Shown piece after piece: positions 13,349 to 64,000 of a stretch of DNA of 64,000 nucleotides (within the stretch, counting starts at the first letter, position 1; each line of letters starts with the position of its first letter). The position numbers and the translations under genes are program-made. The notes beneath the pieces were generated by a model, which was not told where the DNA came from, ran no database searches, and saw nothing but the letters and a program-made list of their open reading frames with translations. Source of the stretch: a bacterium (GTDB lineage Bacteria; Patescibacteriota; WWE3; 2-01-FULL-39-13; JAACPI01); the NCBI GenBank assembly GCA_009995545.1, contig JAACPI010000001.1:2475-66474 (forward strand), written 5' to 3'.

Positions 13349-13467
13349 TTGAGAAAAATCTCCCTACAGTTATCTATCTGTAGGGAGTTAAAAATTCTTT
13401 TTAGTTTTCAACTTACTCTGTTACAATTAAGTTAGTAATTTTATAACTTATATCTAGCCCCGCTGCC

Positions 13468-39364: not shown

Positions 39365-40489
39365 ATGGAACTAAATGACCGTTTTTATAAGTCAACTGAG
39401 GTCTCAGAGATTCTTGGAGTGTCTTTAAGAACACTCTATCGTTACATGGATTCGGGTAAAATCCAATCAGTACAGCTTCCAAGTGGAAGACATCGGTTTA
39501 CTAAACAGCAAGTGGAGTCTTTTTTGTACTCTAATGGCTCAGGTGGTTTAGGGCAAAATGTTCCTATTCAGTCTTATCAAAATAATGCTGACAGAGTTTA
39601 TGTAGATACTGGTTATTCACAAAACCAGAACCAGAACCAATACCAGAACCAGAATCAAAACTCAGGTCAGGGTCAAAACAATGCTTCTGGGATGCCAAAT
39701 AATCAATATAACGGACAGCAGACACCTTTTAACGAATCACAAGGACAACAGCCTGTAGCCCAGGTTAACCCTTATAGCGCACCGGTGCAAAACCAGAACG
39801 CTAGTCCCTTTGCATCTTCACCTTCTGTAAGCCCCCAAATGGATAACAATGTCGCTAATACTCCTGCAGCTCCTGTTGAGGAAGAAGCAGACGATTTAGA
39901 CGCTGAGTTAGAAGAGCTGTTGGCCTCTCTGGAGAGTGACTCCGAGGATGATACAGCTGTAGTAGAAAACTCATCACCTAATAGCGCCCCCCAAAATAAT
40001 GCAGACACTTCTAGTGCTGACCAAACCAAATCTTATACAGGTGGTTTAGGTGGTTTTGCGGATGAAGAAGAGGTTGAAGAAAAAATTACTATACCTAGCG
40101 TAGATGAGAATAATGTTGTTTATTTCTACTGTCCTTATAATCAGTTAAGGGCTATCGCTAGAATGGTAAAAACAACTTCTGAAGATAATGGCAAAAACTA
40201 TGCTTTTACAATGAACGCTGGTTTGTCGCTATACTTTCCTTTAGATCCTTTTTCTGTCATTCACTTCTATATAGAAGAATCTGATTTGGATTTTTGGAAA
40301 GATAACTTACAGCTTAAAGAAAGTAGTAAAAGTGACGCTAACATAGGTTTATTACTTACAAAAGGTGGGGCTTTAAACAATACTAAAGAAGTTAGTGGGT
40401 TAAAAGTTGTATCTAAAGAAGTAATGATAAACAACCTAAAAGCAAATGGCCTTGAAAATTTAATTTCTCAGGTCGAAAGTAAGCTTTAA
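39365..40489 (+). CDS. DNA-binding protein: N-terminal excisionase/MerR-type HTH, a Q/N-rich low-complexity region, an acidic tract and an uncharacterised C-terminal domain
   Basis: YKSTEVSEILGVSLRTLYRYMDSGKIQSVQLPSGRHRFTKQQVESFL (HTH_17-like), followed by NQNQNQYQNQNQN. Confidence 0.5.
   Translation: MELNDRFYKSTEVSEILGVSLRTLYRYMDSGKIQSVQLPSGRHRFTKQQVESFLYSNGSGGLGQNVPIQSYQNNADRVYVDTGYSQNQNQNQYQNQNQNSGQGQNNASGMPNNQYNGQQTPFNESQGQQPVAQVNPYSAPVQNQNASPFASSPSVSPQMDNNVANTPAAPVEEEADDLDAELEELLASLESDSEDDTAVVENSSPNSAPQNNADTSSADQTKSYTGGLGGFADEEEVEEKITIPSVDENNVVYFYCPYNQLRAIARMVKTTSEDNGKNYAFTMNAGLSLYFPLDPFSVIHFYIEESDLDFWKDNLQLKESSKSDANIGLLLTKGGALNNTKEVSGLKVVSKEVMINNLKANGLENLISQVESKL
39620..39662 (+). repeat. 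Simple CAGAAC-type microsatellite encoding the Q/N tract
   Basis: aaccagaaccagaaccaataccagaaccagaatcaaaa. Confidence 0.7.
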
Positions 40490-41342: not shown

Positions 41343-41768
41343 CTATTTAAGTGTTACTTTAGCTCCAGCTTCTTCTAATTTAGCTTTTGCTGCTTCTGCT
41401 GCTTCTTTTTTAGCTCCTTCTAATATTACTTTAGGGGCTGCTTCTACTAAGTTCTTTGCGTCTAATAGACCTAATGAACTATCTAATTCTCTTACTGCCT
41501 TAATAACTGCAATTTTGTTACCACCAGCTTCTGTAAGCTCTACGTCGTAACTACTTTTTTCTTCTTCAGCTGCTCCTCCTTCTGCAGGGGCTGCTCCTAC
41601 CATTGCTACAGGTGCTGATGCGCTAACACCAAATTTTTCTTCCATAGCTTTTACTAAATCTGCTAATTCTAAAACGGTCATTTTTTCTACCATTTCCATT
41701 ACTTTTTTAGCATTTGCGGATAATTCCACAGTTGCTTTTTCTTCTACTACTGATTTTTCGTCTGCCAT
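41343..41768 (-). CDS. rplL: Ribosomal protein L7/L12
   Basis: Ala/Glu-rich, with a KAAP...GAKK...[11 protein letters not shown]-terminus. Confidence 0.9.
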
Positions 41769-44713: not shown

Positions 44714-44747
44714 AGTGTAGCTATTTTATACTGTATCTAGGTTTTTG

Positions 44748-47135
44748 TTAACGATCATTCTGAAAGTACCACAACATTCCGTCTACTAACTCTTCCATAT
44801 GTTTTGGTGTAAGGGCCAATTTGTTTTGTTGATTTAACCAACTTACATATTCCTTAAAAAAGTCCGGGCCCAGTACTATTAATTGGCTTCCAGTACTCCG
44901 AGTTATGTTTAATACGTGGTCGGTTAATTCTTTAACACGAAAAGCTCCAAATATTTTGCCGTAACTACTGTTATTAGCAATAACTCTATGACTGCCGTAT
45001 TTATCTTGGCTTATTACACCTGGGGTATTTTTTATACACACATCCAAAAGTTCTGCAAAAGCATAGCCCATAAGATCATTTGGTATGTATTTTATTAACC
45101 AATCTTGTGTAAGAGTATCCAGTGCTATCACTCTAGGGGTAACCTCCATACCTGCGGATAATGCTGCATTAAATTTATTTGCATAAGCCTCGTCGTAGTA
45201 AAAGACCTCTTTTTTAGTTTCTTGTTTTTTACTTGGCCCGCCAGTTTTAATCATTTTAGATCTTTTTATAGCAACTTCTACACCTTCTTGTGCCTGTATT
45301 TCTTCCAAAGCTTGTCTGTGGGCTGTACTACCGGGTTTGAAGGGCATTAGCATTTGTAAGTACTCAAAAATTTTATCGTAACTTATAAACTCTAAAAAGA
45401 CCTGTTTTAAGTCTAAAATGTCCTCGTTGCCCTCTAAATTAGCCGTATCTACTAAGTAGTATAAAAATTTTATTCTAGCATCAATGTCTGCCTTTAATGT
45501 TTCTACAGTCTGGATAATACTTGGCCTTAGTCTTACAAGATTTGTTCGTTGACCTCTACAGTACCTTTTTATGTTTTCTAGCCTGCCCGCCGTAAAATCA
45601 AAATCCCCTAAGTTATGGGGGTGAATAGCCTGTTGTATCAATATTATAAGATGTTCACCCATTAAAATTACATCTTCGTCTGTTATTGCAATTTCTGGTT
45701 TTTTATCTTCATTTTTCAATTTTAGCTTGTAGATAGATCCTTCCAACTTCCAACCGTTCTGCTGACCATTTAAGATTTTGGAATAAATCTCTTCTCTTTC
45801 ACTACCCTTTAACTGTAAAAGCAAACTTAAAGTTTGTGCCAGCAATTCCTGAGTTTCTATAGAAACGGTTGCTTTAGACCAGCTGTGTAGAGCGTTTTCT
45901 ACATCCTGTATAGAAAATTCTTCACCCACAAAATTTTGTAGTGCCAGTTCTACTGCTTCTATCCCACCTACTCTTTGGGCAGTAGCATGCTCTTTGTTGG
46001 ATCCATCAAACCCTTTTTTAGATAAGTATTGAAGTAATTGTCCTTGTGAGCAACATCTAAGTTCTTCTATTGCTTTTGCTAAAGATGGTCTATCTAACGA
46101 ACTTAAAAAAGTTCTTGTTGTTGTGCCCAAAAAATTCGCTTTGTCTAACTTATGTTCTAAAGTTTGCAATAAAATTAAAAAGGTTCTGTGGTTTAGTCCC
46201 GATGCTGTAATAATACCTTTTACAGCTTCTAGTGTGTCTTGTGAAGATTTCTCTACTAAAATAGGTTGTACTTCGGATCTTACTCTACCTGAAATACCTC
46301 TCACTTCTCTAATCATTTGGTATATTCTTGCCTGTTTAGTATTTTGGCACAAAGTTAAGTACAGGTCTTGCTGTCTGGTAGCCGCGATTTCTTTTCTACC
46401 CAGGTGTTTAAAACCCGCCCCCTCAGTAGTTTTAATTCCCGATAAATCCAGTAGTTCTTGTATTGGGTCCACCCCTTCCTCTTCGTCAAAATTTTTCAAA
46501 GTCTCGGGATCAACAATTAATTCTTGTCTTTGTTTTTTAAGTGTTGGATTGAATTTTAAAAAATCCCTGTATTTTGAAACTTGCTCCCAAATATTTACTA
46601 AGGGTAAGTTGGTCGTTTTCTCAACGTTAAATAAAACTTCTCTTCTGTAGGCTGCAATGGCGGGTAATACTGGGTAAATAACTGCTCTAAAGTCTTCTAT
46701 TTGTTTTTCTATTTCTGCTAACTGTTCTACTGCGTAATTTTGTTGGTACCTTAAGGCAGTTCTTGCCGTAGTTACAAGGCAAGGAAAGTCTTGTGCCCCA
46801 TCGTAAATATCCTGTAATAGGGGAGTAGTATAGTAGTCAACTTCAAATCCAAAGTTTGCGTGTATAAATTGCTTTTCTAAGTACTCATAGTAGTAAATAT
46901 TAGACGCTTCTTCAGGTTTTGCCTGTGGGGTAGAGTTTTGTGGTGTGAAGTAGTTTTCTCCAAACAGCTGTTTAATAAGTAATACCTCTTCTTGTTTGAT
47001 ATAGGGCTGTTCAAAAGGAATACTTGTTTCTTCCATCACTCTATTAGCGGCCTCTAGAAGACAGTCTCTCCACTCTTGTTGTGCTGGGTTTTCAAACTCT
47101 ATTTGATTTTCGTTTGTATCTTGTTTTAGTTTCAT
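44748..47135 (-). CDS. Large hypothetical protein (795 aa), 34 bp upstream of secE on the same strand
   Basis: Long ORF, predominantly helical by composition, with no recognisable catalytic motif. The C-terminal roughly 150 aa has faint macro-like spacing (VIANNSSYG…LIVLGPDF). Confidence 0.5.
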   Translation of the reverse strand: MKLKQDTNENQIEFENPAQQEWRDCLLEAANRVMEETSIPFEQPYIKQEEVLLIKQLFGENYFTPQNSTPQAKPEEASNIYYYEYLEKQFIHANFGFEVDYYTTPLLQDIYDGAQDFPCLVTTARTALRYQQNYAVEQLAEIEKQIEDFRAVIYPVLPAIAAYRREVLFNVEKTTNLPLVNIWEQVSKYRDFLKFNPTLKKQRQELIVDPETLKNFDEEEGVDPIQELLDLSGIKTTEGAGFKHLGRKEIAATRQQDLYLTLCQNTKQARIYQMIREVRGISGRVRSEVQPILVEKSSQDTLEAVKGIITASGLNHRTFLILLQTLEHKLDKANFLGTTTRTFLSSLDRPSLAKAIEELRCCSQGQLLQYLSKKGFDGSNKEHATAQRVGGIEAVELALQNFVGEEFSIQDVENALHSWSKATVSIETQELLAQTLSLLLQLKGSEREEIYSKILNGQQNGWKLEGSIYKLKLKNEDKKPEIAITDEDVILMGEHLIILIQQAIHPHNLGDFDFTAGRLENIKRYCRGQRTNLVRLRPSIIQTVETLKADIDARIKFLYYLVDTANLEGNEDILDLKQVFLEFISYDKIFEYLQMLMPFKPGSTAHRQALEEIQAQEGVEVAIKRSKMIKTGGPSKKQETKKEVFYYDEAYANKFNAALSAGMEVTPRVIALDTLTQDWLIKYIPNDLMGYAFAELLDVCIKNTPGVISQDKYGSHRVIANNSSYGKIFGAFRVKELTDHVLNITRSTGSQLIVLGPDFFKEYVSWLNQQNKLALTPKHMEELVDGMLWYFQNDR

Positions 47136-47140
47136 TTATA

Positions 47141-47170
47141 AACAAAAAAGGCGCCCTTAAGACGCCTTTT
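47141..47170 (-). terminator. Intrinsic terminator between the 447-aa and 795-aa genes (bidirectional hairpin)
   Basis: aaggcgcccttaagacgcctt hairpin followed by TTTTTTGTTT on the minus strand. Confidence 0.55.
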
Positions 47171-47196
47171 AATATCAGTATAGGTTCGGTTAATTA

Positions 47197-48540
47197 TTAA
47201 TTTCCTCCGTTCAAAAAGTCGATTCGTTCCGCCTCTGACCAGTCAGTAGGGTCTACACCAAAATGATTCGCATTTGGGTTTGTCCAGTGGCTTTGCATAA
47301 AAGCAGTTTGGTCTCTTTCTCCCAATTTAACTAGAAGTGCCGTGTACGACGAATCTGAACCACTAAGATCTGTGTTACGGACCAGCTGCTTAGCTGTATT
47401 TCGGACTCTCTTTGTTCTACCTGCCACGCTAACTACACCAGCCTTGCTCTCTGTAGTCTCAGGTTCGAAGTAAAGTTGCAGAGATAAAACGCTCCTAGCG
47501 GCCTTAACCGGATCAAAGTGTCTATTTGAAAAATTTGGGTCCTGTAAGGCTTGTAGATTATTTTTATTACGTAATAGTTGCTCCACAATACCTATCCTAA
47601 ATAATTCATACTCGCTCCCCATGTTTTCTAAACTATAGCTGTAAACATCGTCTGAAATATCCGTTTGGAGTATTCCTGACTTTCCTTCATCTTCCAAATC
47701 ACAATGAATTCCCAAAATTCTGCAGGCTATCTCGTGTGCCTCTGTAATTATCTCCAGATTTGTCAGGTCAATATTTACCCCAAATAGTTGTTTTAGCTGA
47801 TTAAATAAGGCTGATTCAAAGTACTCCTGGTTTCCTGATGCTATATTACTTAACACTATTAATAGTGTTTCCGCTAGTGCCACTTCCTTATTTTTCCTGT
47901 CCCTCATCAGTTGTTCTCGATCTTGCTCCCTTCCTTTTTGTTTTGATTGGTGTGCAATCTGTACTATTCTAATAATTTTAGAAACTGGCCCGGTACGGGA
48001 TTCCATTATCTGCCTAGGTGTTTCCTCAAAGTCAGTAGGGGCTCCAAGTATTTGCATAATAGTTTCATTAGATAAAGCACTTGCCCCAGGGAAATATTTT
48101 TCCATTCTACGTGTAGAAATTGGGTGACCAAAAAGTGAACTTATTTCATCTAGTGCCCTGGGGTCTACTGTTTCTCTTTTAATTCCACTGGAAGTTCGTC
48201 TCCAAAACTCTTCCATGTGAGCCTGTCCAGTTGTATCCGCTATCCGACCTATCCGACCTATCATTATTAGGTCCTTGTCCCTGGTTACATAGGGAAGTCT
48301 CCCTGCAATTAAAGCAAACTCTCCGATTCCACTCCCGCTGTTTGCAATTTCTGAGGCTGTAACTCTTGCTAGCACGCCGTGGGTATTTAATACTGTGGCC
48401 ACATCTGTAGCTGTAGGTATAAATTCTTGGATTTCCTTATTTTCCTTTACAGGCACAATTTCTGTGCCCATTTGTACAGATTCTCTAGATATGGGTTCGT
48501 TTGGTTTGTTTGACATATTTAATGTATAAAAATCTTGCAT
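47197..48540 (-). CDS. Hypothetical protein (447 aa), GC-elevated
   Basis: ORF with no recognised motif. GC is about 40-45%. Confidence 0.5.
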   Translation of the reverse strand: MQDFYTLNMSNKPNEPISRESVQMGTEIVPVKENKEIQEFIPTATDVATVLNTHGVLARVTASEIANSGSGIGEFALIAGRLPYVTRDKDLIMIGRIGRIADTTGQAHMEEFWRRTSSGIKRETVDPRALDEISSLFGHPISTRRMEKYFPGASALSNETIMQILGAPTDFEETPRQIMESRTGPVSKIIRIVQIAHQSKQKGREQDREQLMRDRKNKEVALAETLLIVLSNIASGNQEYFESALFNQLKQLFGVNIDLTNLEIITEAHEIACRILGIHCDLEDEGKSGILQTDISDDVYSYSLENMGSEYELFRIGIVEQLLRNKNNLQALQDPNFSNRHFDPVKAARSVLSLQLYFEPETTESKAGVVSVAGRTKRVRNTAKQLVRNTDLSGSDSSYTALLVKLGERDQTAFMQSHWTNPNANHFGVDPTDWSEAERIDFLNGGN

Positions 48541-48679
48541 TATATTAACCTATAGGTTTTTTTATGTCAAGACATTTTATGCTCTATTAACAAGATATGG
48601 AACTTCTAAAATACAGTAATACCTCGTGGGACTGTAAGTTTTTGTTTTTTTTACTTAACTCTATTTTAAATGTATATAA

Positions 48680-48708
48680 TTGACTTTTCTAAGTACCTAT
48701 AGTATAAA
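48680..48708 (+). promoter_or_regulatory. Sigma70-like promoter (TTGACT-17-TATAAA) for the 218-aa gene
   Basis: Near-consensus spacing. A GAGAGGG SD-like sequence lies 8 nt before the ATG at 48764. Confidence 0.35.
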
Positions 48709-48763
48709 ATAGGTGCTGTTAATCGACGTTGTTAATTGAAGTACTAGTGAGAGGGCATTAAAA

Positions 48764-49420
48764 ATGCAGACAACACAGGCAGTTGTAAGTGGGGATCAGT
48801 TCCTCGGTGAATTGGAGTTTGGTATAACGTGGGATCCGTCTCGTATGGAGGAGTCCAAGACATACTTTGGTCTTCTCATCGAAGGGGCCGGCGACCAGGG
48901 AATACTAGCTTCAGAAGCCCAGGAGTTGATGAAGAAGGAGGGGCTTTGGCCTGACGTAGGGCCCAAGGCCGGGGCGGTCGTGAGATCGTACGCAGTGAAG
49001 GATGTCCGGGACGAGGGGGTCTTTTATATTCCCAAAGCCTCCAAATCCACACAAGTTGTTGAGTCAGTTGGGGAAGCCGCCGTCTCTACAGGTGACCCTG
49101 CCTCTACGGTTGAAGCCGCCGCAAAAGTTGCTGCTGAATCCGTAGAAGAGAAGTCGGCCGCTGAGTCTGTGAAAGAAGAGATTGGGTCCAAAACCCCAAC
49201 CCCTGAATTGGATTACATGCTCGCCTTGGTCGAAGGTCTTGAGTCTAGGGTTCACGAGTTGGAGCAGGTAAACAATGCTCTCACTGAGATGTTTGAACTG
49301 CTAGAGGCAAAGGTTATTTCCGGGCTCTCCAGACTTGAGGTTGAATTGGATCTCAGTATGGTGAAGGGAGATCCTCAGCCGAAGAAGCATGTTGTGCATC
49401 TGCACTTCCACGACGAGTAG
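48764..49420 (+). CDS. Hypothetical protein (218 aa) with strongly elevated GC, an Ala/Glu-rich linker, a coiled coil and a His-rich C-terminus
   Basis: Local GC is about 47-60%, the highest in the window. Ends …HVVHLHFHDE. Confidence 0.5.
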   Translation: MQTTQAVVSGDQFLGELEFGITWDPSRMEESKTYFGLLIEGAGDQGILASEAQELMKKEGLWPDVGPKAGAVVRSYAVKDVRDEGVFYIPKASKSTQVVESVGEAAVSTGDPASTVEAAAKVAAESVEEKSAAESVKEEIGSKTPTPELDYMLALVEGLESRVHELEQVNNALTEMFELLEAKVISGLSRLEVELDLSMVKGDPQPKKHVVHLHFHDE

Positions 49421-49433
49421 GGTTAACAGCAAC

Positions 49434-49493
49434 CGACTGGGGGTCGAGAATAAACGCAATGAATTATTGCAACTATATCTCGACCCCCAGTTG
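49434..49493. other. 15-bp-stem inverted repeat with a 30-nt loop (the loop itself is a small hairpin), immediately 3' of the GC-rich gene
   Basis: cgactgggggtcgag … ctcgacccccagttg. No U-tract follows on either strand. Confidence 0.5.
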
Positions 49494-49519
49494 GAAACCC
49501 AAAAATATAAATAATATAA

Positions 49520-52273
49520 ATGTCAAAAGCACTAGCAGAATCTCAATTTAAGGGTGATCAAGAAAAGGTTTTTATAGACTTGTTTGGTAATGCTTGCGTA
49601 GAGATAGCTAACGAGGAATACTTTGATGCTTACAATAAATATCCAAAACCTACTGGTGAGGAAGACCCTCATTTTAATACTTTTTTACAATCTAGAATTT
49701 CTGTTTACCAACGAGCTTTGGAAATAGGAAAATCCTGCTTAGATAATAGATTTACAAACGACCCAGAGGTTACTTTGCAAGATCCCAAAGACGGTGTATT
49801 TAAAACCTATAAATATGACCCTGTTAGTAGGGGGGTAGTTCTCGTTAATGAAGCAGTCTCCAAACAGGGTAATAGTTTTATAGATTTTACGCTAAATTTT
49901 GGAGAAGAATCTGCCTCGGACAATTCAGATAACGGAGACTTCCGCCGATCGGAAAATGACGAGATTAACTTTTACTCTGATTATACCTTGATGCACCAAA
50001 TGCTTTCAAAGGGCATGGAAGAGTTAGGTGCTCAATATACTTTTTTTGAGGCAGCCTTAAATAAATTTAAAAGATTTGACTCCACTGGTTGGGCTACATT
50101 AAAAAACACACCCCCCATTGATATAAACTTAAAAAGGGCTAAAAACTATCTTGCGATTCTAGATAAAATGCCCTCAAATGTAGAAAAAAGCTCTTGGTTT
50201 GTAAACCAAAGGGTCTTAGATCCTTCTTTAGAGAACTGGTCAGATAGAAGTAATCAGTTGCTAGAAGAGGCTGAAATTTTGGAAGGATTTTTTAATTCTG
50301 GCCCGGAGTATAAAACTGTACGAACTTTAAACTCTGAGAATTCTTTTGCTGTAGCATTGATTGGGGAAAGATATACCCCTTCTTCATTTCCTCAAATATA
50401 TATTGACGATGTTATTGCGATTAGTAGGATAATTTATGATCTAGCTATTTCTATACCCGATCCAATTGACAGAGAAAGTGCCTTAACAAATGTTGCTAGC
50501 GAGATTTTTATTAAAAGGTCTTCTCAGTTAGTCTCTTTATTGGAATCAAGAGGCATGCCTGTTGAATTGGGGTTAAATTACTTTAGGCAGATATTACAAA
50601 AGTACATTATGCGTCTCCCGGAACAATACTGCGTAGACTTTTTTGAGGGTAGAGAAGTTGAATTTACAATGAGAAACTTACTTTATGGTAGATATAACAC
50701 TGTTCACGATGAAAGAGAAAACTCCGAACGACATTTAGCCTCTTTTTTACAGCAGTATAAACAGGGGAAGTACAAGTCAGACTCGTTGGAGTCTTTAGAA
50801 CCCGGTACCGTTAAAGAAGTTTACGCCAAACTGGTAACAGGAAAACTAGAGGGTTTTGACTCAGAAAGCACTAGAAATGCCCTTATAGCCACTTTGAGAT
50901 ATTTTCAAATCGACTACGAGGATTCTTTGCAGGTTTTTGTTCCCACCGAAGGGTCGGTTACGTGCAGAACTTTTTTTGGGTCGATTAAAGATAACTTAAA
51001 ACAGCTTTCCCCTGTGGTTATCGAAGTGTTTTCTGAAATTTACGCTTATAAAAGTCTAGTTAACGAACTTAATGAGCTTGGAAAAGCAGGTCAAATAAAA
51101 GCTGACGCCCTTTTGGTTGGAAGAATTAAAAACAAGTATTCTGGCGAGAACGTCTCTGATTTCAGATCTGGTGATAAATTATATTTAGATTTGGATGTTT
51201 TTGTTGAATGCCACTTGCCCCAGATTGCAAGAAACATTAAATCTGTAATTGAGCAAGTTTCTTACTATAGTCAGCCTTTAAGTTCCGAAAATATTATATT
51301 ATCTGTAAAAAAATGGGTTAAAGAAAGACCAGAACTGGTAAGCCCCGCGTGTGCGGCTTTTGGTTTAAGCCCTCTCCAATTAGAGCAATATATAGCTGCT
51401 AAAGTAACCTTTATAACTGTAAAATCTAAGCGCTATTTTGCAAGTAACCCTAATTTTATGTTAGTTACCCTAGAAAACTCTTGGGCAGAAAACTTAGCAG
51501 AGCAAGAAAGTAAAAAAAAAGTTGAAAAACTTGTAAATAAAGGATTCACCTGGCAGGAATTCTCTGCTTTACCCGTTATAGTGCAAAATAGGCTGGTAGA
51601 TGCTGTTTTCGAAATGCCCGATACCAAGGAAAAACAGGAATTGCTTTTAGATATCTTTTACTATCTAAGGCTTAAATATTCTATGAGAGGGCCACTAAAG
51701 TTGTTTGATGTTACAAAACAGAAATCAGAAGAGCCCTTAGTAAAAATTAAACGCATTCAGGCTGTGTCTCATTTTTCTGTTAGAGCCATTCAAGGTTTAT
51801 CTAGTGAGTCTGTACTTGCAGATTATCTTGATACCGTTTTACTAAGGGATAGACTCTTTTCTACTATAGACAGCGGCATACCCAAACCTTTTACGGGTCA
51901 GTTGGGTAAAGAACTTAGACAAGAATTTTTTACATATTATTTTGCTAAACATGGCACTAGAAAGGGAAGTGTTATACCAAAAACCCTATACAGTAAAGAC
52001 ACTATATCTTTGATGGCAAGGGATTTTGTACAAGAAAACTTAAGTATAGTCGAGGAAAAAATGGAACGGAGAAACGTAAAAATTAGAAGAGCGGAAAACC
52101 ATTATGATTTAGACCGATTTACTAATGAACTTGTAGAATATGCTGAGGATGCCTTTGAAAGAACCCGAAGGTTACTTTACGGTAATGGATACGTGGTTGA
52201 GAGAGGTTTAACAAGTAAGGTTGTTATACAAACATTAACATCTCTACTTGAGGCTTCCTTAGAAAGAATATAA
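49520..52273 (+). CDS. Large hypothetical protein (917 aa)
   Basis: Long ORF with no TM segment, no signal peptide and no nucleotide-binding or metal-binding motif visible. Confidence 0.5.
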   Translation: MSKALAESQFKGDQEKVFIDLFGNACVEIANEEYFDAYNKYPKPTGEEDPHFNTFLQSRISVYQRALEIGKSCLDNRFTNDPEVTLQDPKDGVFKTYKYDPVSRGVVLVNEAVSKQGNSFIDFTLNFGEESASDNSDNGDFRRSENDEINFYSDYTLMHQMLSKGMEELGAQYTFFEAALNKFKRFDSTGWATLKNTPPIDINLKRAKNYLAILDKMPSNVEKSSWFVNQRVLDPSLENWSDRSNQLLEEAEILEGFFNSGPEYKTVRTLNSENSFAVALIGERYTPSSFPQIYIDDVIAISRIIYDLAISIPDPIDRESALTNVASEIFIKRSSQLVSLLESRGMPVELGLNYFRQILQKYIMRLPEQYCVDFFEGREVEFTMRNLLYGRYNTVHDERENSERHLASFLQQYKQGKYKSDSLESLEPGTVKEVYAKLVTGKLEGFDSESTRNALIATLRYFQIDYEDSLQVFVPTEGSVTCRTFFGSIKDNLKQLSPVVIEVFSEIYAYKSLVNELNELGKAGQIKADALLVGRIKNKYSGENVSDFRSGDKLYLDLDVFVECHLPQIARNIKSVIEQVSYYSQPLSSENIILSVKKWVKERPELVSPACAAFGLSPLQLEQYIAAKVTFITVKSKRYFASNPNFMLVTLENSWAENLAEQESKKKVEKLVNKGFTWQEFSALPVIVQNRLVDAVFEMPDTKEKQELLLDIFYYLRLKYSMRGPLKLFDVTKQKSEEPLVKIKRIQAVSHFSVRAIQGLSSESVLADYLDTVLLRDRLFSTIDSGIPKPFTGQLGKELRQEFFTYYFAKHGTRKGSVIPKTLYSKDTISLMARDFVQENLSIVEEKMERRNVKIRRAENHYDLDRFTNELVEYAEDAFERTRRLLYGNGYVVERGLTSKVVIQTLTSLLEASLERI

Positions 52274-52277
52274 GAAA

Positions 52278-53417: not shown

Positions 53418-53777
53418 TTAAATTTTTTCTCTTAACCATAGGTCTAGTCCATCGTTTTTGTACCTAGGTACAACATGCATATGAAAATGAAAAACCGATT
53501 GGCCGGCATCTTTTCCTGAAGCCTGGAGCAAATTTACCCCTGTGGCTTTGTACTTTTTGGTTAATTCCATACTTATATCTTTACTAACCAAAATCAGTTC
53601 TTTAAGCACACTGGGGTCAATATCTAAAATATTTTCAAAATGTTCTTTTGGTACAACCAAGGTATGCCCTTTAGAAACGGGATCAATTGGGTTGAAAACT
53701 ATTATTTTGCTGTTTTCAAAAATTATAGTGGCTGGGGACTTACGATTGTTTATTTGGCAGAATATACACGATTCCAT
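53418..53777 (-). CDS. HIT-family nucleotide hydrolase
   Basis: HFHMHVVPR histidine triad. Confidence 0.8.
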   Translation of the reverse strand: MESCIFCQINNRKSPATIIFENSKIIVFNPIDPVSKGHTLVVPKEHFENILDIDPSVLKELILVSKDISMELTKKYKATGVNLLQASGKDAGQSVFHFHMHVVPRYKNDGLDLWLREKI

Positions 53778-54803: not shown

Positions 54804-54980
54804 ATGGCAAAAAAAGGTAATCGAATACTACTACTTTTAGAATGTACAGCTTGTAAGGCAAGAAATTACATTAGTGAAAAAAATAAAGTAAATACCCCTG
54901 ATAAAATAACTGAGTTAAATAAGTTTTGCACCAAGTGCAAAAAGCATACTCCTCACAAAGAACAAACTAGGTTAAAGTAA
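54804..54980 (+). CDS. rpmG: Ribosomal protein L33 (58 aa, below the ORF-track size cutoff)
   Basis: MAKKGNRILLLLECTACKARNYISEKNKVNTPDKITELNKFCTKCKKHTPHKE is an L33 Cys4 zinc ribbon, 6 nt after rpmB. Confidence 0.75.
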   Translation: MAKKGNRILLLLECTACKARNYISEKNKVNTPDKITELNKFCTKCKKHTPHKEQTRLK

Positions 54981-57648: not shown

Positions 57649-60204
57649 ATGGCCATAATGTACCAAGCTGTAGATAATGATCGTGTTCCAGGTGAATATT
57701 GTCCTTTATCAAACACAGTAGGGAGTGAAAATAAAGCATTATCTGAATTTACTCCTGCAGATATTTTTACAAAATCAGACCTTGGGCCTGTTCTTGCAGA
57801 AGTAATTACTGTGGGTAGGCAGTTTCATGAGGCAACCGGTATCATTCCCCGTGCTCTTATAATTCCTGTTTCTGGGACTTTGCAAGTAGAGACAAGGATA
57901 CCCGGCGTATCCTCTATTGTAGTCCCTCGTTCCGTTGATTTTATAGGAAGTCTTTCTGTAGACCCTGTCTTATTAAATGAGCAACTTTGTGCAAACGGTG
58001 TATCCCTTTTAACAATTCGTAAACAAATAAAAGCAGCTAACGATATTTTAAATACACCCTCAACTTCTAGAACACTTAGGCAAAGTACTGTAAAACAATT
58101 AGCTGAACTTGAGGCAAAACAGTCATTGTTGGTGAGTGGTATTTTATCTGCATCAGGTGCTTTATACCTACCTTTTTCTAAAACAGAGACACCTGTATCT
58201 GTACCTCAAAACAGTACGGGTAATAAAACCCCCTTACCTCCGATTGTTCCCACACCTAGCAGCTCGGGTAAAAAGTCTTCAAAGACTACAGGAGGGGAAG
58301 TTGTGTCCCTTGATGAAGTTACTAAACCTTTGCCTCAGAAAAAAAGACGTAATGGCGCCCTTATTGCTATTACAAGTACAGTTATTGCCTCGTTGGTAGT
58401 GGGTTGTGCTTCAGGTAAACCGGTTGACTCTGCTCCCTCACCTACGGTGACTATTGCAGTTCCTGCTAACTCTGTACCAGAACAAATATTACCTGAGGGT
58501 CTAGATGTTAGAGAGGTAAATGTACATTTTGATACATCGGCAATTAAGGCTGAGCTTCCTAACGGCACTACCGTAACTATCCCTAATTTAGAAACATTGT
58601 TAGCGGAATCTTCTTTGGGAGTTAGTACTACTATTAATGCAGATTCTGGTGCTAAGGTACGAGGCTACACCTTGGATTCCGAGGGTAATCCCATAATTGA
58701 TGGCGTCGTTAAAAACTTGCCTAACGGTAGCCCTGTTGTTGTTGTAGGTATAAAAAAAGCATCTGACGAGGCACCCGCCCCAGAGGATAACTGGGCATTG
58801 CTTGAGGACGGAACCTCCGTTGCAGCAAGTTTAGTAAACCTTGTCTCTGCAGAGCGTCTGATTGGTACTGGTGGAGATCAAGCATCTTTAGAAAAAATGA
58901 ATGAGGAACTTGCTAAGGTAACAGGATTATCTGTAGGTGAGGTAGCTTTATTACCGGAATCGATACGTAGTATTTTAATAAGAGGTGCAGGTTCTTCCTA
59001 TACTATTGAAGGCTATTCTGTCGCAGCTCTACTTCCCAACAGTAATTTATTTGTTTTAACAGGCCCAGATGGTCGTATTGTTTTTTCTCCCGCGGACAGT
59101 ATAGCCTCAGTTTTGGGTCTTTCAGCTGAGGAATACTCTAATTTAATGGCAAATATAAGTGTTGTTGTAAACCCACAAACTCTAGGAGACCTTTCAATAT
59201 ACATGGGCACTGTACTTTCGGTAGATTTTGCTACTGAATATTCTCAGGGTGTACCGAATTTTGAGGCACAAAATATACCTACTGAACTCTCCAGCAGGTT
59301 TCCAGATTTGTCTATACGTGGGAAGGAAAGTACCGTTCCTCCCAGATTAGTTCAAACAATTTTGGGCAGGGATGTTACAGTTGCAGTTTGGGACACAGAA
59401 TCCTCAAATTGGGTGCAATCTGGTTTAACACAAGCTGAGTTAGAAGAAATTGAAAGTAGTAACGTAATTCTTTTTAACGATGGTAAAGGCGACGGGAATA
59501 AAAAACCACTAGAGTTGGGTCCTTTTTACGAAGATACTGTTGGTAGCTTGGCCTTATATGGAATAGCTGCTTCAGATTACAAGTTTACTCAAGTTGACAT
59601 TTTAAACAAATCAGATGGAACCCCAACAGGGTGGAAATTCGGTTCTTTGTCAATTGATATTTATCAGAAGGATGTTGATGGAAGTTACACTGCTCAAAAT
59701 TGGTTGATTCAATCGGGGAGTGTCTTTATATCTCCAAATGGTAAAAGATTTACCTCAATCGTACAACAGGGTGGTTCTACAATCGGTATTGGTGAACTGC
59801 CAGAACATTTATTCCCAGATAGAGATTTAGGAGATGGGGGTAGTTTTACAAAAGTTGGTAATTCTCCCACCCCAAATACCCCTATAAGTGTAGGTGAACC
59901 TGTAGTACTTTGGTGGCAGAATTTTGCATCGGATAATGGTTATGCAGAAAAGGTAGCTTCTGCTACTGGTAGTCTTGGAGATTACCTGAGCTCAGGTAAT
60001 TTAGACGGTACAACTGTCAGACTTGCAGGTCTAGCGTTGCAGAGAGGTGTAGATGCCAACTTTACGCTAGGTGGTTACTCTTTAGCACGATTCACCATGG
60101 AGGAAATTTCTGCAGCTATATCTTCCCACAGTCCCTTGCCAGTACCCGAAGGTCTTTTTAGCGGTGGACCTGGGTTTATAGTAAGATTTCCGGCTCAAAA
60201 ATAG
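57649..60204 (+). CDS. Large bitopic surface protein (851 aa): roughly 230-aa cytoplasmic N-domain, Ser/Pro-rich linker, TM helix (ALIAITSTVIASLVVG), roughly 600-aa extracellular domain
   Basis: ORF plus hydropathy. No recognisable catalytic motif. Confidence 0.5.
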   Translation: MAIMYQAVDNDRVPGEYCPLSNTVGSENKALSEFTPADIFTKSDLGPVLAEVITVGRQFHEATGIIPRALIIPVSGTLQVETRIPGVSSIVVPRSVDFIGSLSVDPVLLNEQLCANGVSLLTIRKQIKAANDILNTPSTSRTLRQSTVKQLAELEAKQSLLVSGILSASGALYLPFSKTETPVSVPQNSTGNKTPLPPIVPTPSSSGKKSSKTTGGEVVSLDEVTKPLPQKKRRNGALIAITSTVIASLVVGCASGKPVDSAPSPTVTIAVPANSVPEQILPEGLDVREVNVHFDTSAIKAELPNGTTVTIPNLETLLAESSLGVSTTINADSGAKVRGYTLDSEGNPIIDGVVKNLPNGSPVVVVGIKKASDEAPAPEDNWALLEDGTSVAASLVNLVSAERLIGTGGDQASLEKMNEELAKVTGLSVGEVALLPESIRSILIRGAGSSYTIEGYSVAALLPNSNLFVLTGPDGRIVFSPADSIASVLGLSAEEYSNLMANISVVVNPQTLGDLSIYMGTVLSVDFATEYSQGVPNFEAQNIPTELSSRFPDLSIRGKESTVPPRLVQTILGRDVTVAVWDTESSNWVQSGLTQAELEEIESSNVILFNDGKGDGNKKPLELGPFYEDTVGSLALYGIAASDYKFTQVDILNKSDGTPTGWKFGSLSIDIYQKDVDGSYTAQNWLIQSGSVFISPNGKRFTSIVQQGGSTIGIGELPEHLFPDRDLGDGGSFTKVGNSPTPNTPISVGEPVVLWWQNFASDNGYAEKVASATGSLGDYLSSGNLDGTTVRLAGLALQRGVDANFTLGGYSLARFTMEEISAAISSHSPLPVPEGLFSGGPGFIVRFPAQK

Positions 60205-60259: not shown

Positions 60260-60865
60260 GTGAGAACTGCCAAATTAAAACTAATAATACTTTCATTTTT
60301 TGTTTTGCTTGTTTTGGTTTTAGTAACTTACTTACTATCTAGATCAAAAAAAAGTGATTCTCCCATTTCGGATATCAACACTACTCCTGTTTCCAGTGAA
60401 CTTGAGTCTGATAAAAGTTGGTATTCTCGACAGGAAGGCTTATGGATTATTGGCACTTTAATTGAATCTAAGGAAGAAGGTGATGATTTTTATCTCAAAA
60501 TAGGGGTAGATAATTTTGAAATTAAAGTTTTATTAGGGTCTAAAGAGCTTAGTAAGTTCGGTGTTTCCTATCCCGAAAACAACCAGGTCGTGCCCTTTCA
60601 TTCCAAAAAATGGGAAACTCTTGGTTTTACAGAAATATCCTCAGATTTAATTTCCGGTCACAAAATAGCGGTTCTGATAAAAACTAGCTTTCCTGAATCA
60701 GCCTCTTTGTGCAGTAACAAGGTTTGTTCTTACTCTTTAGCTAATTTAGAAAAATATCTCCCTAATAACAAATCCCTGCAGGATAAGTTAGGTTCTGAGA
60801 ATACGGGACATTTAGAATCGGGTTTAATATATGGTCCTGTATCTCAAATTTCGCTCTACAAATGA
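60260..60865 (+). CDS. Small N-terminally anchored extracellular protein (201 aa)
   Basis: Signal or anchor segment LKLIILSFFVLLVLVLVTYLL. Its stop overlaps the next start (ATGA). Confidence 0.4.
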   Translation: MRTAKLKLIILSFFVLLVLVLVTYLLSRSKKSDSPISDINTTPVSSELESDKSWYSRQEGLWIIGTLIESKEEGDDFYLKIGVDNFEIKVLLGSKELSKFGVSYPENNQVVPFHSKKWETLGFTEISSDLISGHKIAVLIKTSFPESASLCSNKVCSYSLANLEKYLPNNKSLQDKLGSENTGHLESGLIYGPVSQISLYK

Positions 60866-63800
60866 ATACGAAGATCTTTAAGGTATTAGTGCTTTTTTTC
60901 CTACTCTTAACCTTAGTACTGCTTATTTTCCCATCTAAAAAACATGTTTCAGCTCAGACCTGTACAGGTTCTGCTCAATATGTCGACTACAGCTGTGTTT
61001 TTGATGACATAACTTTACTTTATAGCTGTATTGCTAATGGCGGTATGACCGTAGCCTGTGCAGGAGTTCCGTGCCAGACTTTCGGCCCAGTCTTTTGTTG
61101 GGGGGGTCTTAGTTGCGGCCTGTCTGCCTATGGTTCTACAGCAGGTTGCAGCACAACCCCCGTACCCCCTGCTGTTTGCGGTAACGGTACTAGAGAAACA
61201 GGAGAAGGTTGTGATGACGGCAATAAAACGAATGGTGATGGCTGTAGTTCTTCTTGTCAGATAGAAACTTCTAAACCCGTCTGCGGAAATGGTAAAAAGG
61301 AAACAGGAGAAGGTTGTGATGACGGCAATAAAACGAATGGTGATGGCTGTAGTTCTTCTTGTCAGCTAGAACCTTCCTTGCCCGTGTGTCCAAACGGTAT
61401 TGTGGAAGCTGGGGAGGCTTGTGATGACGGTAATAGTAACAATTTGGATGGTTGCAGAAATAACTGCACCACTCCTTATTGTGGCGATGGTATTATAGAC
61501 TCTCCAGGGGAGACCTGTGATGGGGGAGTGGGGTGTACTTCTAACTGTACCGGTATTACAGGAGGGGGATACGCTTGTAATGGGTCCTCCTGTGAAGCCT
61601 CTGTTGGTGGTCCATACACTGCCTCAGATTGCGGAGGAGCTTGTAATACTCCGACAGGACAATTTTTTTGTGGAAATGACCTGGCTTGCCACCCTTGTGG
61701 TGCGGGCGACTCAAATTGTAAATCCTTGGGAGATTGTCAAAGTGAGTGTGTATGTACTTCTCCAGGTGGGTGCTTTGTTTCTGGGTGTAACCCCTTAGCC
61801 ACTTCGGGAATTTGCGATGGTGCACTTATCCCTGGCGCCAACACTACTGGCTGTATGGGGAACGGTTGGATGGATCTTTTAGATTTAGCTTCAAAAAGGG
61901 TTAGGTATAATTTAGATTGTGGTAATGCAAACTGGGGCCAAACCAACATTGGTGGTGGAGGGACAAACTACGAGGGGTTGGGTGTTTTACGTAAATTACC
62001 AAATCCCCCCGATCCAAACTACCCTTGGGTTGAGGTGGCACTAGTACCTAATGGCCAGGGGGGTTCTATTGATTTTACCGACCCTTATCTTACCACGGGT
62101 GTTAATCAATATAAGGTTATAGCCAGATGTGCTTATCGTGAAAACACAGGTACTGCCGATAGGATAAAATGGGTAAAGATTGGTGGTACTACATATCACA
62201 ACAATGACGATTTCTACGATGTGAGTATGTACTCTGCATGTAGCCAGGATAAGATACTGCAGCTGGTTCTAACTCCCCCCGTCTGCAATAACTGGTTTGT
62301 TAGTCCGAACATAGACAGCATCCCAAAAACTGTAAGCATAGAATCCAATGCTTACGACGGCGAGGGTCTATCAGGGGGAGGTATGTATTACAGCACTACC
62401 CAAAATGGGGCTTACGGCAGCATAGATAGTAATGGAAACTTTGTAGCTGGGACGGCTGGAGAAATTATTGCTAACAGGGCAGATTATTTTTCTTCGGGTA
62501 CTTTAGCAGGTAAAATAACTTCTACCTTTAACATACAAAACTTACCATCGGGTAATTATCAGTTTCAGGGTAATTATTGGAATAAATATGCAAGTTTTCC
62601 CAGTACCGACCCTTTGCACTTCAAGCAATGTCTCTCCCCTCAAGTATATATAGATAATACTCCGCCTACCTGCGGAAATTGGAATTTTAACCCCGCTTCC
62701 CCTTTGGATTCGACCCAAAACTCCTTTAGCGTTTCCACTTCTGCTACGGACAACTCTGCAATTAGAGATTTCGGTTTTTACTACCAGAACTACGACGAAT
62801 CTACAAGTACCTGGGGATACTACGATGCCGGAGGTGTTTTTGTTCCAAATTCTTACGTACCTCTCGTAAAAAACAAATCAGATTATTTTACTCCCCCTGT
62901 TCCGAGCCCTACAACTACTAATTTTATTAATAGGTCCAATATACCCTCAAATAAATTTAGGTTTTTTGCAAACTACTGGGATTCCTCAGCACCTCATAAC
63001 TTGTCGGCAGGGAGTAATAATTTTTCTCAGTGTGTTTCGCCCGTTTATGAAATAAAATCCTCGGCTCCTGTAATTTCTTTAACAATTCCTGCCGCAACTA
63101 CTTACAAGGGATATAATAATTATTATTCTGATGGTAAATATTCTGTTCAGGTAAAAATTACCGATACCCCAGGAGACGTTAATACTTACAATTGGGGAGT
63201 ACTAGGCGGGTTATTAACTGGATCTCTAACCAGTGGCTTAAAGAATGGTACAGTTGTAAATTATCCTTTCAGTTTAAGTTTAGACTGGGCTCCCGGATCA
63301 GCATTTAACCAAGTTGGCACATCTCAGGTGTCTTTTAATAGTATAGACTCACAGGGTAACGATATTACTGTTTCTGACCAGATAAGTACCGTATCCCCAA
63401 CTTTTACAGCAAACACTAGCCTTCGTTATAGAAACAAGGTTGTTAGCGGTTCTCAGGACTTAAAAGCCTTTTGTGAAGATGCCGAGTTTAACAACAATGC
63501 GAATACCAAGAATTTCAATTCAGGAAATAATGGAATCTCCGCGATAGTCAATTTTACCTCTGCAGGTCCTCTTGCGAGTTCTTCCTACAACAAAAGCTTT
63601 AATACTAAAATCCAGGGCACCGACGTTTATACTAATTTAGTTGAGATGGTGGGAACTAGCTACTATACTGCCAGTTTTCTTCCCCAGTTTACTGTCCCTG
63701 GTTACGAGGTACTATGCATCAAAGACATGACGAACAACAAAACATACTCTGGGCAATCCGACTTGCTTGTTAACGTAGCTCGAGAGTCGACTCTGAATTT

Positions 63801-64000
63801 AAGAGCTGTATTTGGAAAGGTGACTCCCAAAGGTTGGTTTCAGGCAGTTGGTGGAAATATATTTACAGGTGCGGCGCCAACCTACCAATATCCTGATGTT
63901 TCGGAGGTGACTAGTGCCTTTACTGCAAATCTATATAATTTGAGTTCTAGTACTACTGCCTCTTTCAATACTCCTCCTGCTGAGGCTATATTTTCTAATT
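60862..64000 (+). CDS. Secreted giant protein with Myxococcus-type cysteine-rich repeats (CGNGxxExGExCDDGNxxxGDGCSxxC), 3'-truncated by the window end
   Basis: Frame-1 ORF from the ATG at 60862, read codon-by-codon to 64000 without a stop (more than 1040 aa). Signal peptide MNTKIFKVLVLFFLLLTLVLLIFPSKKHVSAQ. Three or more CxxGxxExxExCDDGN repeats, then a long Asn/Ser/Thr/Gly-rich beta region. The ORF track misses it because it has no in-window stop. Confidence 0.7.
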   Translation, partial: MNTKIFKVLVLFFLLLTLVLLIFPSKKHVSAQTCTGSAQYVDYSCVFDDITLLYSCIANGGMTVACAGVPCQTFGPVFCWGGLSCGLSAYGSTAGCSTTPVPPAVCGNGTRETGEGCDDGNKTNGDGCSSSCQIETSKPVCGNGKKETGEGCDDGNKTNGDGCSSSCQLEPSLPVCPNGIVEAGEACDDGNSNNLDGCRNNCTTPYCGDGIIDSPGETCDGGVGCTSNCTGITGGGYACNGSSCEASVGGPYTASDCGGACNTPTGQFFCGNDLACHPCGAGDSNCKSLGDCQSECVCTSPGGCFVSGCNPLATSGICDGALIPGANTTGCMGNGWMDLLDLASKRVRYNLDCGNANWGQTNIGGGGTNYEGLGVLRKLPNPPDPNYPWVEVALVPNGQGGSIDFTDPYLTTGVNQYKVIARCAYRENTGTADRIKWVKIGGTTYHNNDDFYDVSMYSACSQDKILQLVLTPPVCNNWFVSPNIDSIPKTVSIESNAYDGEGLSGGGMYYSTTQNGAYGSIDSNGNFVAGTAGEIIANRADYFSSGTLAGKITSTFNIQNLPSGNYQFQGNYWNKYASFPSTDPLHFKQCLSPQVYIDNTPPTCGNWNFNPASPLDSTQNSFSVSTSATDNSAIRDFGFYYQNYDESTSTWGYYDAGGVFVPNSYVPLVKNKSDYFTPPVPSPTTTNFINRSNIPSNKFRFFANYWDSSAPHNLSAGSNNFSQCVSPVYEIKSSAPVISLTIPAATTYKGYNNYYSDGKYSVQVKITDTPGDVNTYNWGVLGGLLTGSLTSGLKNGTVVNYPFSLSLDWAPGSAFNQVGTSQVSFNSIDSQGNDITVSDQISTVSPTFTANTSLRYRNKVVSGSQDLKAFCEDAEFNNNANTKNFNSGNNGISAIVNFTSAGPLASSSYNKSFNTKIQGTDVYTNLVEMVGTSYYTASFLPQFTVPGYEVLCIKDMTNNKTYSGQSDLLVNVARESTLNLRAVFGKVTPKGWFQAVGGNIFTGAAPTYQYPDVSEVTSAFTANLYNLSSSTTASFNTPPAEAIFSN
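61195..61365 (+). repeat. Perfect 66-bp direct repeat (61195-61260 and 61300-61365) spaced 105 bp apart inside the Cys-rich repeat gene
   Basis: gaaacaggagaaggttgtgatgacggcaataaaacgaatggtgatggctgtagttcttcttgtcag occurs twice with 100% identity. Confidence 0.85.

Follow-up and report, generated by a model that had tools for sequence, protein, structure and literature searches.

Fast-evolving operons of two genes, a small one and a large one, are known in symbionts (e.g. cifA-cifB of Wolbachia), as are chaperone-effector and toxin-immunity pairs. Bacteria of the Candidate Phyla Radiation (CPR) are largely episymbionts, and to our knowledge the genes by which they interact with other cells have yet to be identified. 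[quoted passage not shown] Here we analyze a stretch of 64,000 nucleotides from a patescibacterium of the WWE3 lineage (contig JAACPI010000001.1, positions 2,475 to 66,474; hereafter the window), and within it a 7.5-kb block of four genes that lies between the gene for an M50 site-2 protease and secE. Our results indicate that the block is best read as an orphan module that evolves fast and comprises two small-plus-large gene pairs, rather than as a fresh foreign insertion, and we put the probability that it is a vertically inherited accessory gene module of one genus-level lineage of Patescibacteria at about 0.6.

The block is organized as two divergent bicistrons, in each of which a small gene precedes a large one. 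The leftward operon consists of p447 (47197-48540, minus strand), encoding a soluble protein of 447 aa, followed by p795 (44748-47135, minus strand), encoding an acidic, soluble and mostly helical protein of 795 aa. The rightward operon consists of p218 (48764-49420, plus strand), encoding a very acidic protein of 218 aa from a segment of anomalous G+C content (GC), followed by p917 (49520-52273, plus strand), encoding a soluble protein of 917 aa; p795, p447 and p917 belong to no recognized family. In position and length the four open reading frames (ORFs) match exactly those reported in a first-pass annotation of the window, and the strands (-, -, +, + from left to right) bear out its statement that p218 and p917 diverge from the other two. 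Database records list the products as hypothetical proteins GW755_00215 to GW755_00230, and an alternative start shortens p447 to 439 aa in some assemblies. All nine metagenome assemblies of the same population carry the block in the same gene order; since these assemblies are clonal, differing at 0-2 sites per gene with nucleotide identities of 99.7% or more, a within-population comparison of nonsynonymous and synonymous changes had no power on selection and was abandoned.

Inheritance of the block

An indication of vertical descent comes from a sister organism, represented by an 18.8-kb contig (L018), in which all four genes occur in the same order, orientation and place. The contig reads MerR-like, L12-L10-L1-L11-NusG-SecE, 766 aa, 416 aa, 204 aa (plus strand), 916 aa (plus strand), M50 (minus strand), PD-(D/E)XK_3, DAGK (diacylglycerol kinase) and YbeY, where q766, q416, q204 and P0017 are the orthologs of p795, p447, p218 and p917, respectively. 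Protein identities between the two organisms were taken from pairwise comparisons, with values from MAFFT alignments added where a range is given. They amount to 93% for NusG, 88% for L11, 86% for both M50 and L12, 84% for YbeY, 81% for SecE, 76% for L1, 75% for L10, 73% for DAGK and 60% for the MerR-like protein. Within the block they are 38-39% for p447, 34-37% over the full length of p795, 29% for p917 and 26% overall for p218, which reaches 36% over 47 residues (29-75). At the DNA level, the two sequences align at 74-84% across both flanks, and the alignment coming from the secE side ends at 45078, inside the 3' end of p795, to restart exactly at 52276, the stop codon of the M50 gene.

By the Nei-Gojobori method, nonsynonymous divergence (dN) is 0.64-0.89 in the block versus 0.05-0.18 in the flanks, where synonymous divergence (dS) is about 0.4-2.5 with a median of about 1.4, i.e. 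near saturation; by Poisson distances, the block evolves approximately 6-7 times faster than the median flank. The ratio of the two (omega) is roughly 0.3-0.6 for the block genes, a range that the near-saturated dS makes a rough estimate only. Divergence affects each block protein from end to end, with two exceptions of degree: conservation in p795 peaks over the C-terminal ~100 residues (50% invariant), and p447 is somewhat better conserved in its middle, the motifs IAGRLPY, GHPIxTRxMExYFPG and NIASGNQEYF being invariant between p447 and q416. Because the proteins keep their full length and many invariant motifs despite this divergence, and because omega lies at about 0.3-0.6, vertical descent under weak purifying selection fits these data, and replacement by foreign genes need not be invoked. 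For the p218-p917 part of the block at least, there is also a homolog in a third lineage (L017).

More distant relatives suggest how the block came to stand where it does. The closest relatives by NusG in a species-level genome collection are metagenome-assembled genomes (MAGs) of Patescibacteria/CPR (Saccharibacteria, WWE3, Patescibacteria group), with 48-66% identity. In six of seven of these distant relatives (L001-L005 and L007), secE has the M50 gene as its immediate upstream neighbor, in divergent orientation, whereas in the window the M50 gene is 7.5 kb away from secE and in the opposite relative orientation. As M50 and secE are adjacent in all six, the gene orders point to M50|secE as the reference state of the clade and to the block as a lineage-specific insertion relative to that ancestral arrangement. 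The first-pass annotation had taken the contiguity of rpmG, tRNA-Trp, secE and nusG as its reference, which is not the arrangement of this clade, and had put the gap between secE and rpmG/tRNA-Trp at about 9.5 kb. The genes are indeed separated, but by 10.1 kb in the case of rpmG (54804-54980) and 11.1 kb in that of tRNA-Trp (55798), and the interval holds ordinary genes besides the 7.5-kb block, namely the M50 protease, DAGK, HIT and YbeY-like genes, two tRNA-Thr genes and rpmB, with a VTT-domain gene sitting between rpmG and tRNA-Trp. The synteny comparison of the secE-rpmG interval that the same annotation had called for thus finds the block absent from six distant relatives and kept in the sister species. 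Its description of the block as an insertion holds relative to the M50|secE order of the six relatives and is not supported for a recent or foreign one, given a syntenic sister species and native composition in three of the four genes. It had also named an outcome that would speak against its view, the same genes in the same place across the clade with native composition; half of this is what we observe, by way of the sister species and within a very narrow clade.

Large ORFs upstream of secE in the relatives (824 and 437 aa in L002, and others) were considered as counterparts of the block genes and rejected, as they encode a P-type ATPase, an EPSP-synthase-family protein (PF00275), ArgRS and a photolyase. 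In both the window and L018, the M50 gene (PF02163; 52278-52892 on the minus strand of the window), which marks the right-hand boundary and lies outside the block, is on the same strand as secE and convergent with p917, with a gap of 4 nt between the two stop codons in the window and an overlap of 8 nt in L018. Compared with L001, the orientation of the YbeY-like and rpmB genes is reversed as well, and the three flips together suggest that the gain of the block coincided with small local inversions. Two further differences between the window and L018 are found on this side: L018 has a gene of the PD-(D/E)XK_3 nuclease family (13408-13806, minus strand) between M50 and DAGK, for which the window has no counterpart, and the window has a HIT gene (53418-53777) between DAGK and the YbeY-like gene, where no gene is called in L018.

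Could the block nevertheless be a recently acquired foreign island, i.e. a mobile element, a prophage remnant or a transferred cassette bringing an effector or defense module? Its absence upstream of secE in the six distant relatives, the strongly atypical GC of p218 and the small rearrangements nearby (the inverted M50 gene, and PD-(D/E)XK_3 in L018 versus HIT in the window) would fit such an event. However, searches of PHROGs, IMG/VR, INPHARED and PLSDB found no integrase, transposase, phage or plasmid match for the block proteins searched, and there are neither direct nor inverted repeats flanking it nor a tRNA at its junctions. Of the marks of a mobile element or prophage (integrase, transposase or structural genes, att sites or terminal repeats, phage or plasmid relatives) the block shows none, and of those of recent transfer it shows neither island-wide deviant GC and codons nor absence from close relatives. 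The block adjoins its neighbors closely (secE at 34 nt, M50 at 4 nt), p795, p917 and p447 have native GC with GC1 > GC2 > GC3 by codon position, the GC shift of p218 is common to its ortholog, and the block occupies the same place in species separated by a dS of about 1.4. A foreign island is very improbable on this evidence, and its "recent" version is largely refuted.

The composition of the genes deserves closer attention, since two of them had been described as clearly GC-shifted against a background of roughly 33%. The window measures 36.5% GC, and the per-gene GC and codon statistics, proposed at the same time, give native values for three of the block genes and a deviant one for p218. 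Both p795 (GC 0.363; GC at third codon positions, GC3, 0.294) and p917 (GC 0.362, GC3 0.301) are indistinguishable from their neighbors. The claim of a shift does not hold for p447 (GC 0.408, GC3 0.330), which falls in the upper native range together with the genes at 3088-5676, 8103-9371 and 57649-60204 (0.40-0.41). It does hold for p218, whose GC of 0.525 and GC3 of 0.562 make it the sole outlier against a GC3 of 0.15-0.37 in all 45 other ORFs examined, with G/C-ending codons enriched for nearly all amino acids. Its ortholog q204 (9278-9892 of L018) is likewise GC-rich (GC 0.499, GC3 0.459) versus a GC3 of 0.15-0.28 in its neighbors. Under a two-state decay model, an ancestral GC3 of 0.8-1.0 would have fallen to about 0.34-0.39 at a dS of 1.4, and to at most 0.51 at a dS of 1.0. 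The observed values are 0.56 and 0.46, a bias too strong for a passive remnant at this divergence, so that the GC-rich codon choice of p218 has most likely been maintained in both species and would not be the footprint of a recent transfer. Our preferred explanation, which is a guess, would be selection for a stable and highly expressed mRNA.

GC-rich islands in AT-rich genomes are often RNAs, and p218 might be really, or additionally, a structured non-coding RNA whose ORF is incidental. A 657-nt GC island (0.525) in a genome of 36% GC, kept in two species and directly followed by a conserved and very stable hairpin, would fit this idea. Yet the frame is uninterrupted over 218 codons in p218 and 204 in q204, the same frame in both species, while the other frames are closed (longest 92 codons); the codon-position pattern is of the coding type (GC1 0.64 > GC3 0.56 > GC2 0.37); and a ribosome-binding site (RBS) and a consensus promoter precede the gene in both species. 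Together with the conserved residues 29-75, these features argue that the segment is coding. We also tried the segment as a structured RNA and rejected it, because no Rfam family matches it at the gathering threshold or even at E <= 1 and its fold energy is unremarkable (z = -1.8). An RNA in place of, or in addition to, the protein is thus extremely unlikely.

Regulatory signals and proposed mechanism

The two operons are predicted to be driven from a divergent promoter region (48541-48763) with a putative promoter for each: TTGACA-17-TAATAT for p447 (48570-48542, minus strand) and TTGACT-17-TATAAA for p218 (about 48681-48709, plus strand), the latter followed by the RBS GAGAGGG. Both promoter cores are identical or nearly so in L018, where the DNA between them is not conserved. 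Conserved promoters around strongly diverged coding sequences suggest that expression of the block is under selection. Directly upstream of both -10 elements stands the palindrome CTATAG (48549-48556 and 48695-48702 in the window; 9070-9077 and 9215-9222 in L018), a possible operator site through which one regulator could act on both promoters.

On the secE side, p795 and its downstream neighbors secE, nusG, rplK, rplA, rplJ and rplL are on the same strand, and the 34 nt between p795 and secE contain no terminator, just as had been noted in the first-pass annotation, which regarded co-transcription as probable. A promoter-like site, TTAACA-17-TAAAAT (44723-44751, minus strand), overlaps the stop codon of p795 just upstream of secE; it has AGTATAAAATAG in common with the p218 promoter and has a counterpart in L018, TTAACA-17-TAGAAT, that is equally far from the GTG start of secE. 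Given this conserved site, secE would not depend on read-through from p795, so that co-transcription is possible and not required.

One may speculate that the block proteins assist the machinery of transcription, translation or secretion as accessory factors specific to the lineage, and that their working with it is the reason for co-expression with secE-nusG-rplKAJL. The position of p795 speaks for this, with both the arrangement and the 34-nt spacing kept in L018. However, the block genes show a dN 4-15 times that of the adjacent machinery genes, which would be unusual for integral partners of conserved complexes; secE appears to have a promoter of its own; p218 and p917 are read in the direction leading away from the operon; and the distant relatives have the same machinery and not the block. 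Such a role is highly unlikely. At the other end of the operon, rplL (41343-41768), which in most bacteria is followed by rpoB-rpoC, is here followed by an apparently non-coding gap of ~850 nt, beyond which lies a convergent 374-aa gene of MerR/HTH_17 type (39365-40489, plus strand); L018 has the same arrangement.

Between p447 and p795, the sequence predicts an intrinsic terminator or attenuator (47146-47170, minus strand) with an 11-bp stem and a T-run, which looks bidirectional (A-run, hairpin, T-run). It ends ~10 nt before the ATG of p795 and leaves no space there for a promoter or a Shine-Dalgarno sequence, which suggests that p795 is made by read-through and that the terminator acts as an attenuator. 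A terminator at 47141-47170 that separates the two genes had been proposed before; its presence is confirmed, whereas separation is the wrong term for an element that would attenuate the transcript so close to the p795 start. At the equivalent place in L018 the terminator is absent. Inside p795, in antisense orientation, a 40-nt copy of the p218 promoter region (48672-48711) is found at 46860-46899 on the plus strand, with 80% identity and an exact core of 13 nt, a match whose chance expectation for the region is ~0.005. The copy points toward the terminator and might give rise to a short antisense RNA that covers the 5' end of p795.

An intercistronic hairpin (49433-49494, plus strand, 62 nt) separates p218 from p917. 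It comprises an outer stem of 17 bp with a small stem-loop inside and is not followed by a U-tract. Its folding free energy (dG) is -40 kcal/mol (z = -10.5) in the window, compared with -38.5 (z = -8.0) in L017 (32-94) and -32.4 (z = -5.8) in L018 (about 9903-9957), and compensatory changes occur in the outer stem across the three lineages. Of L017, the hairpin region alone can be aligned to the window at the DNA level, with 84% identity over 106 nt, yet the p917 homolog of this lineage is only 32% identical. The hairpin is unique within the window, and Rfam has no family for it at the gathering threshold, the only match at E <= 1 being a spurious one to mir-335. As a probe for further carriers of the block, a DNA pattern of the hairpin arms was of no use, since the 154 loci retrieved were generic GC-rich hairpins and none of them encodes the four proteins or their five orthologs.

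We propose the following mechanism. Judged from sequence alone, the block genes are almost certainly expressed, and they would be functional and held by weak purifying selection. The hairpin after p218 and, in this species, the terminator before p795 would each reduce the amount of the large partner compared with that of the small one, so that each pair would supply an abundant small partner and a scarce large one, which probably form a cytoplasmic complex. Transcription of p795 could continue into secE-nusG, where secE would also have its own conserved promoter-like site. The GC-rich codons of p218 would be actively maintained, most likely for the stability or structure of an mRNA that supports high expression. 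It is tempting to speculate that the fast evolution points to a conflict or to an interface with a partner, be it a host cell or a phage, rather than to housekeeping.

Protein families and possible function

The first-pass annotation had found the four proteins mostly alpha-helical, without recognizable homology and without Walker, HExxH, transmembrane (TM) or signal-peptide motifs, and this description is borne out, the helical character in the case of p795. Scans for Walker A ([GA]xxxxGK[ST]), HExxH, DEAD and CxxC motifs were negative in all four, and hydropathy gave no TM segment or signal peptide (maximum 19-residue Kyte-Doolittle mean 1.47). All four are acidic, and p218 combines a short conserved N-terminal helical hairpin and an Ala/Glu/Ser/Val-rich linker with a long C-terminal helix that is probably a coiled coil. 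No family of Pfam-A or NCBIfam matches the block proteins at E <= 0.01, apart from a sub-threshold match of DUF7518 to p218 (17 bits versus a cut-off of 27); against Pfam, the orthologs q766, q416, q204, P0016 and P0017 likewise give sub-threshold noise only. PHROGs returned only noise (E >= 0.04), and the orthologs have no match there either. Neither the four proteins nor profiles built from the ortholog sets match PDB sequences, leaving aside an artifact of p218 with designed PPR proteins. In tblastn searches, p795, p447 and p218 found nothing among INPHARED phages, nor p795 among PLSDB plasmids, and scans of IMG/VR and metagenomes with alignments of p447 and p795 found no relatives. Among the four families themselves, BLASTP and profile-profile comparison with hhalign detected no paralogy.

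The PPR artifact had suggested a PPR/TPR-like fold for p218, which we reject: the 41.7 bits are the sum of eight matches of ~6 bits each (i-Evalue 67-99), the p218/q204 profile matching identical repeats of a designed protein with one and the same 32-aa segment, the single such segment in p218, and no Pfam PPR or TPR family matches p218 or q204.

How restricted these families are depends in part on the search. An exhaustive HMMER search with p917 against 1.84 billion representatives found only three clusters, i.e. its own, P0016 (947 aa, 32% identity, E = 7e-115) and P0017 (916 aa, 30% identity, E = 5e-99), and the three p917 lineages are equidistant from each other at 29-32% identity. In a word-indexed search of 5.8 billion clusters, p795, p917 and p218 matched their own clusters only; this search overlooked P0018, a full-length ortholog of p795 with 34% identity that is present in the collection. 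For long and fast-evolving proteins, a word-indexed result of this kind should not be read as true orphan status. Taken together, the coding sequences are real and no homolog was found outside a narrow taxon, with a search sensitivity that differs by protein. Structure prediction with AlphaFold2 (AF2) had to be run on single sequences, because the homologs are too few for an alignment, and both models obtained are unusable for fold comparison: p795 gave a mean predicted local distance difference test score (pLDDT) of 35.8 with mostly helical secondary structure, which is the basis on which its helical character is borne out, and p218 one of 42.1 with a helix at 147-186.

Another explanation is that the block encodes novel effectors of anti-phage defense or of host interaction in episymbiosis, which diverge in an arms race, with the small protein of each pair as chaperone, immunity protein or regulator of the large one. 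Several observations are in line with this idea. The proteins evolve at 6-7 times the flank rate; the three p917 lineages are equidistant (~30%) although one of them has a nearly identical hairpin, which suggests diversifying selection or allele turnover; the small-plus-large pairs and an acidic coiled-coil p218 fit the layout; and CPR bacteria are largely episymbionts. Against PADLOC-DB v2, however, the sole match of the block proteins is one of p795 to JetD2 (E = 0.017, 12.5 bits), with none for p447, p218 or p917 and none for the five orthologs, so that the JetD-like score is not reproduced and the signature of an effector, defense or host-interaction module, as had been suspected, was not found. 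Furthermore, the proteins have no nuclease, ATPase, protease or NTPase motif and no signal peptide or TM segment for export, and the estimated omega is below 1. Defense islands are typically present in some genomes and absent from others, whereas all nine assemblies and the sister species carry the block, and divergence extends over the whole length of the proteins instead of being focused in a specificity domain. We consider this explanation unlikely. A more elaborate version, that of an undescribed four-component system of a CPR genus for host interaction or anti-phage defense, in which p795 and p917 diversify, p447 and p218 control them, the GC-rich p218 transcript with its 3' hairpin serves as a regulatory or dual-function RNA of high stability and expression and the proteins represent new folds or families, is quite unlikely.

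It is against this background that vertical inheritance of an accessory module has to be weighed, and several points count against it. Near-saturated dS limits what omega can say about selection. The contrast between the hairpin and the p917 homolog in L017 may hint at strong diversifying selection or at the replacement of alleles. The known lineages number two or three, and vertical inheritance rests on one full-length comparison. The lack of the terminator in L018 weakens the proposal of a scarce large partner for the p447-p795 pair, and the promoters, the attenuation and the stoichiometry are all inferred from the DNA. As the exhaustive search covered p917 only, relatives of p795, p447 and p218 may have been overlooked, and since both structure predictions failed (pLDDT 36 and 42), remote structural homology to a known family may exist.

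The vertically inherited, fast-evolving module that we favor has company in the window. Five more ORFs match no Pfam family: 3088-5676 (minus strand, 862 aa), 57649-60204 (plus strand, 851 aa), 7157-7888 (243 aa), 13468-14151 (227 aa) and 60260-60865 (201 aa). With lineage-restricted families of unknown function being the rule in the phylum and five more family-less ORFs nearby, a specialist would not be surprised by the block. The window also contains an ORF of 1185 aa (14614-18171) whose only recognizable domain is Peptidase_S74 (endosialidase chaperone), and a reading frame of more than 1044 aa (60868-63999, plus strand, GC 0.45-0.52) that runs off the end of the window and, having an N-terminal hydrophobic segment, represents a large secreted or surface protein. 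The GC-rich part at 60.9-62.1 kb, for which no ORF had been listed, was considered as an RNA and dismissed, being part of this reading frame and without an Rfam match.

The main value of these results is corrective, in that large proteins without motifs beside the ribosomal/secE operon of a CPR genome are not evidence of a foreign effector island. They also provide two concrete leads, the GC-rich codons of p218 that are kept against an AT bias and the conserved, very stable hairpin. If the module acts in host or phage interaction, it would offer a way into the dealings of an uncultured CPR lineage with its partner cell, along with four families without known relatives.

Comparison with known systems

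In number and size of genes, the block recalls Wadjet (JetABCD) and the condensin-like Muk/Mks systems, which it resembles in having four genes with products near the sizes of a kleisin-like (~450 aa) and a KITE-like (~220 aa, acidic) component. It differs from them in having no SMC/ABC ATPase and no Walker A motif, and no match to the Pfam families SMC, AAA, ABC, MukE/F, ScpA/B or Toprim. The lead toward Wadjet was dropped for this lack of an ATPase subunit and because the JetD match is below a meaningful threshold and absent in the ortholog.

Another possible resemblance is that to cifA-cifB of Wolbachia and to chaperone-effector and toxin-immunity pairs. As in these, a small gene is followed by a large one, and the proteins are helical, fast-diverging and free of signal peptides, and the setting is a host-associated bacterium with a reduced genome. 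The block differs from all of them in that no sequence similarity is detected, no nuclease, deubiquitylase or other catalytic domain is present, there is no prophage context, and no secretion or toxicity is in evidence.

The hairpin between p218 and p917 can be compared with intercistronic stabilizer or attenuator hairpins in general. Like these, it is very stable, lacks a U-tract, stands directly after the upstream cistron and has compensatory changes, with a small, presumably abundant product encoded before it and a large one after it. It is set apart by being neither a dispersed repeat of the repetitive extragenic palindromic (REP) type nor a member of an Rfam family, and its effect on the transcripts is a predicted one.

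By kind, if not family by family, the block is most readily set beside the clusters of unknown function in the AGNOSTOS catalogue (PMC9132574). Like them, it is restricted to a genus or species, carries no Pfam or other annotation and comes from a CPR MAG. It differs from them in that its four families are contiguous, unusually long (up to 917 aa) and syntenic in a sister species, and in that they have the chromosome's most conserved genes on either side and are accompanied by conserved regulatory elements in RNA and DNA.

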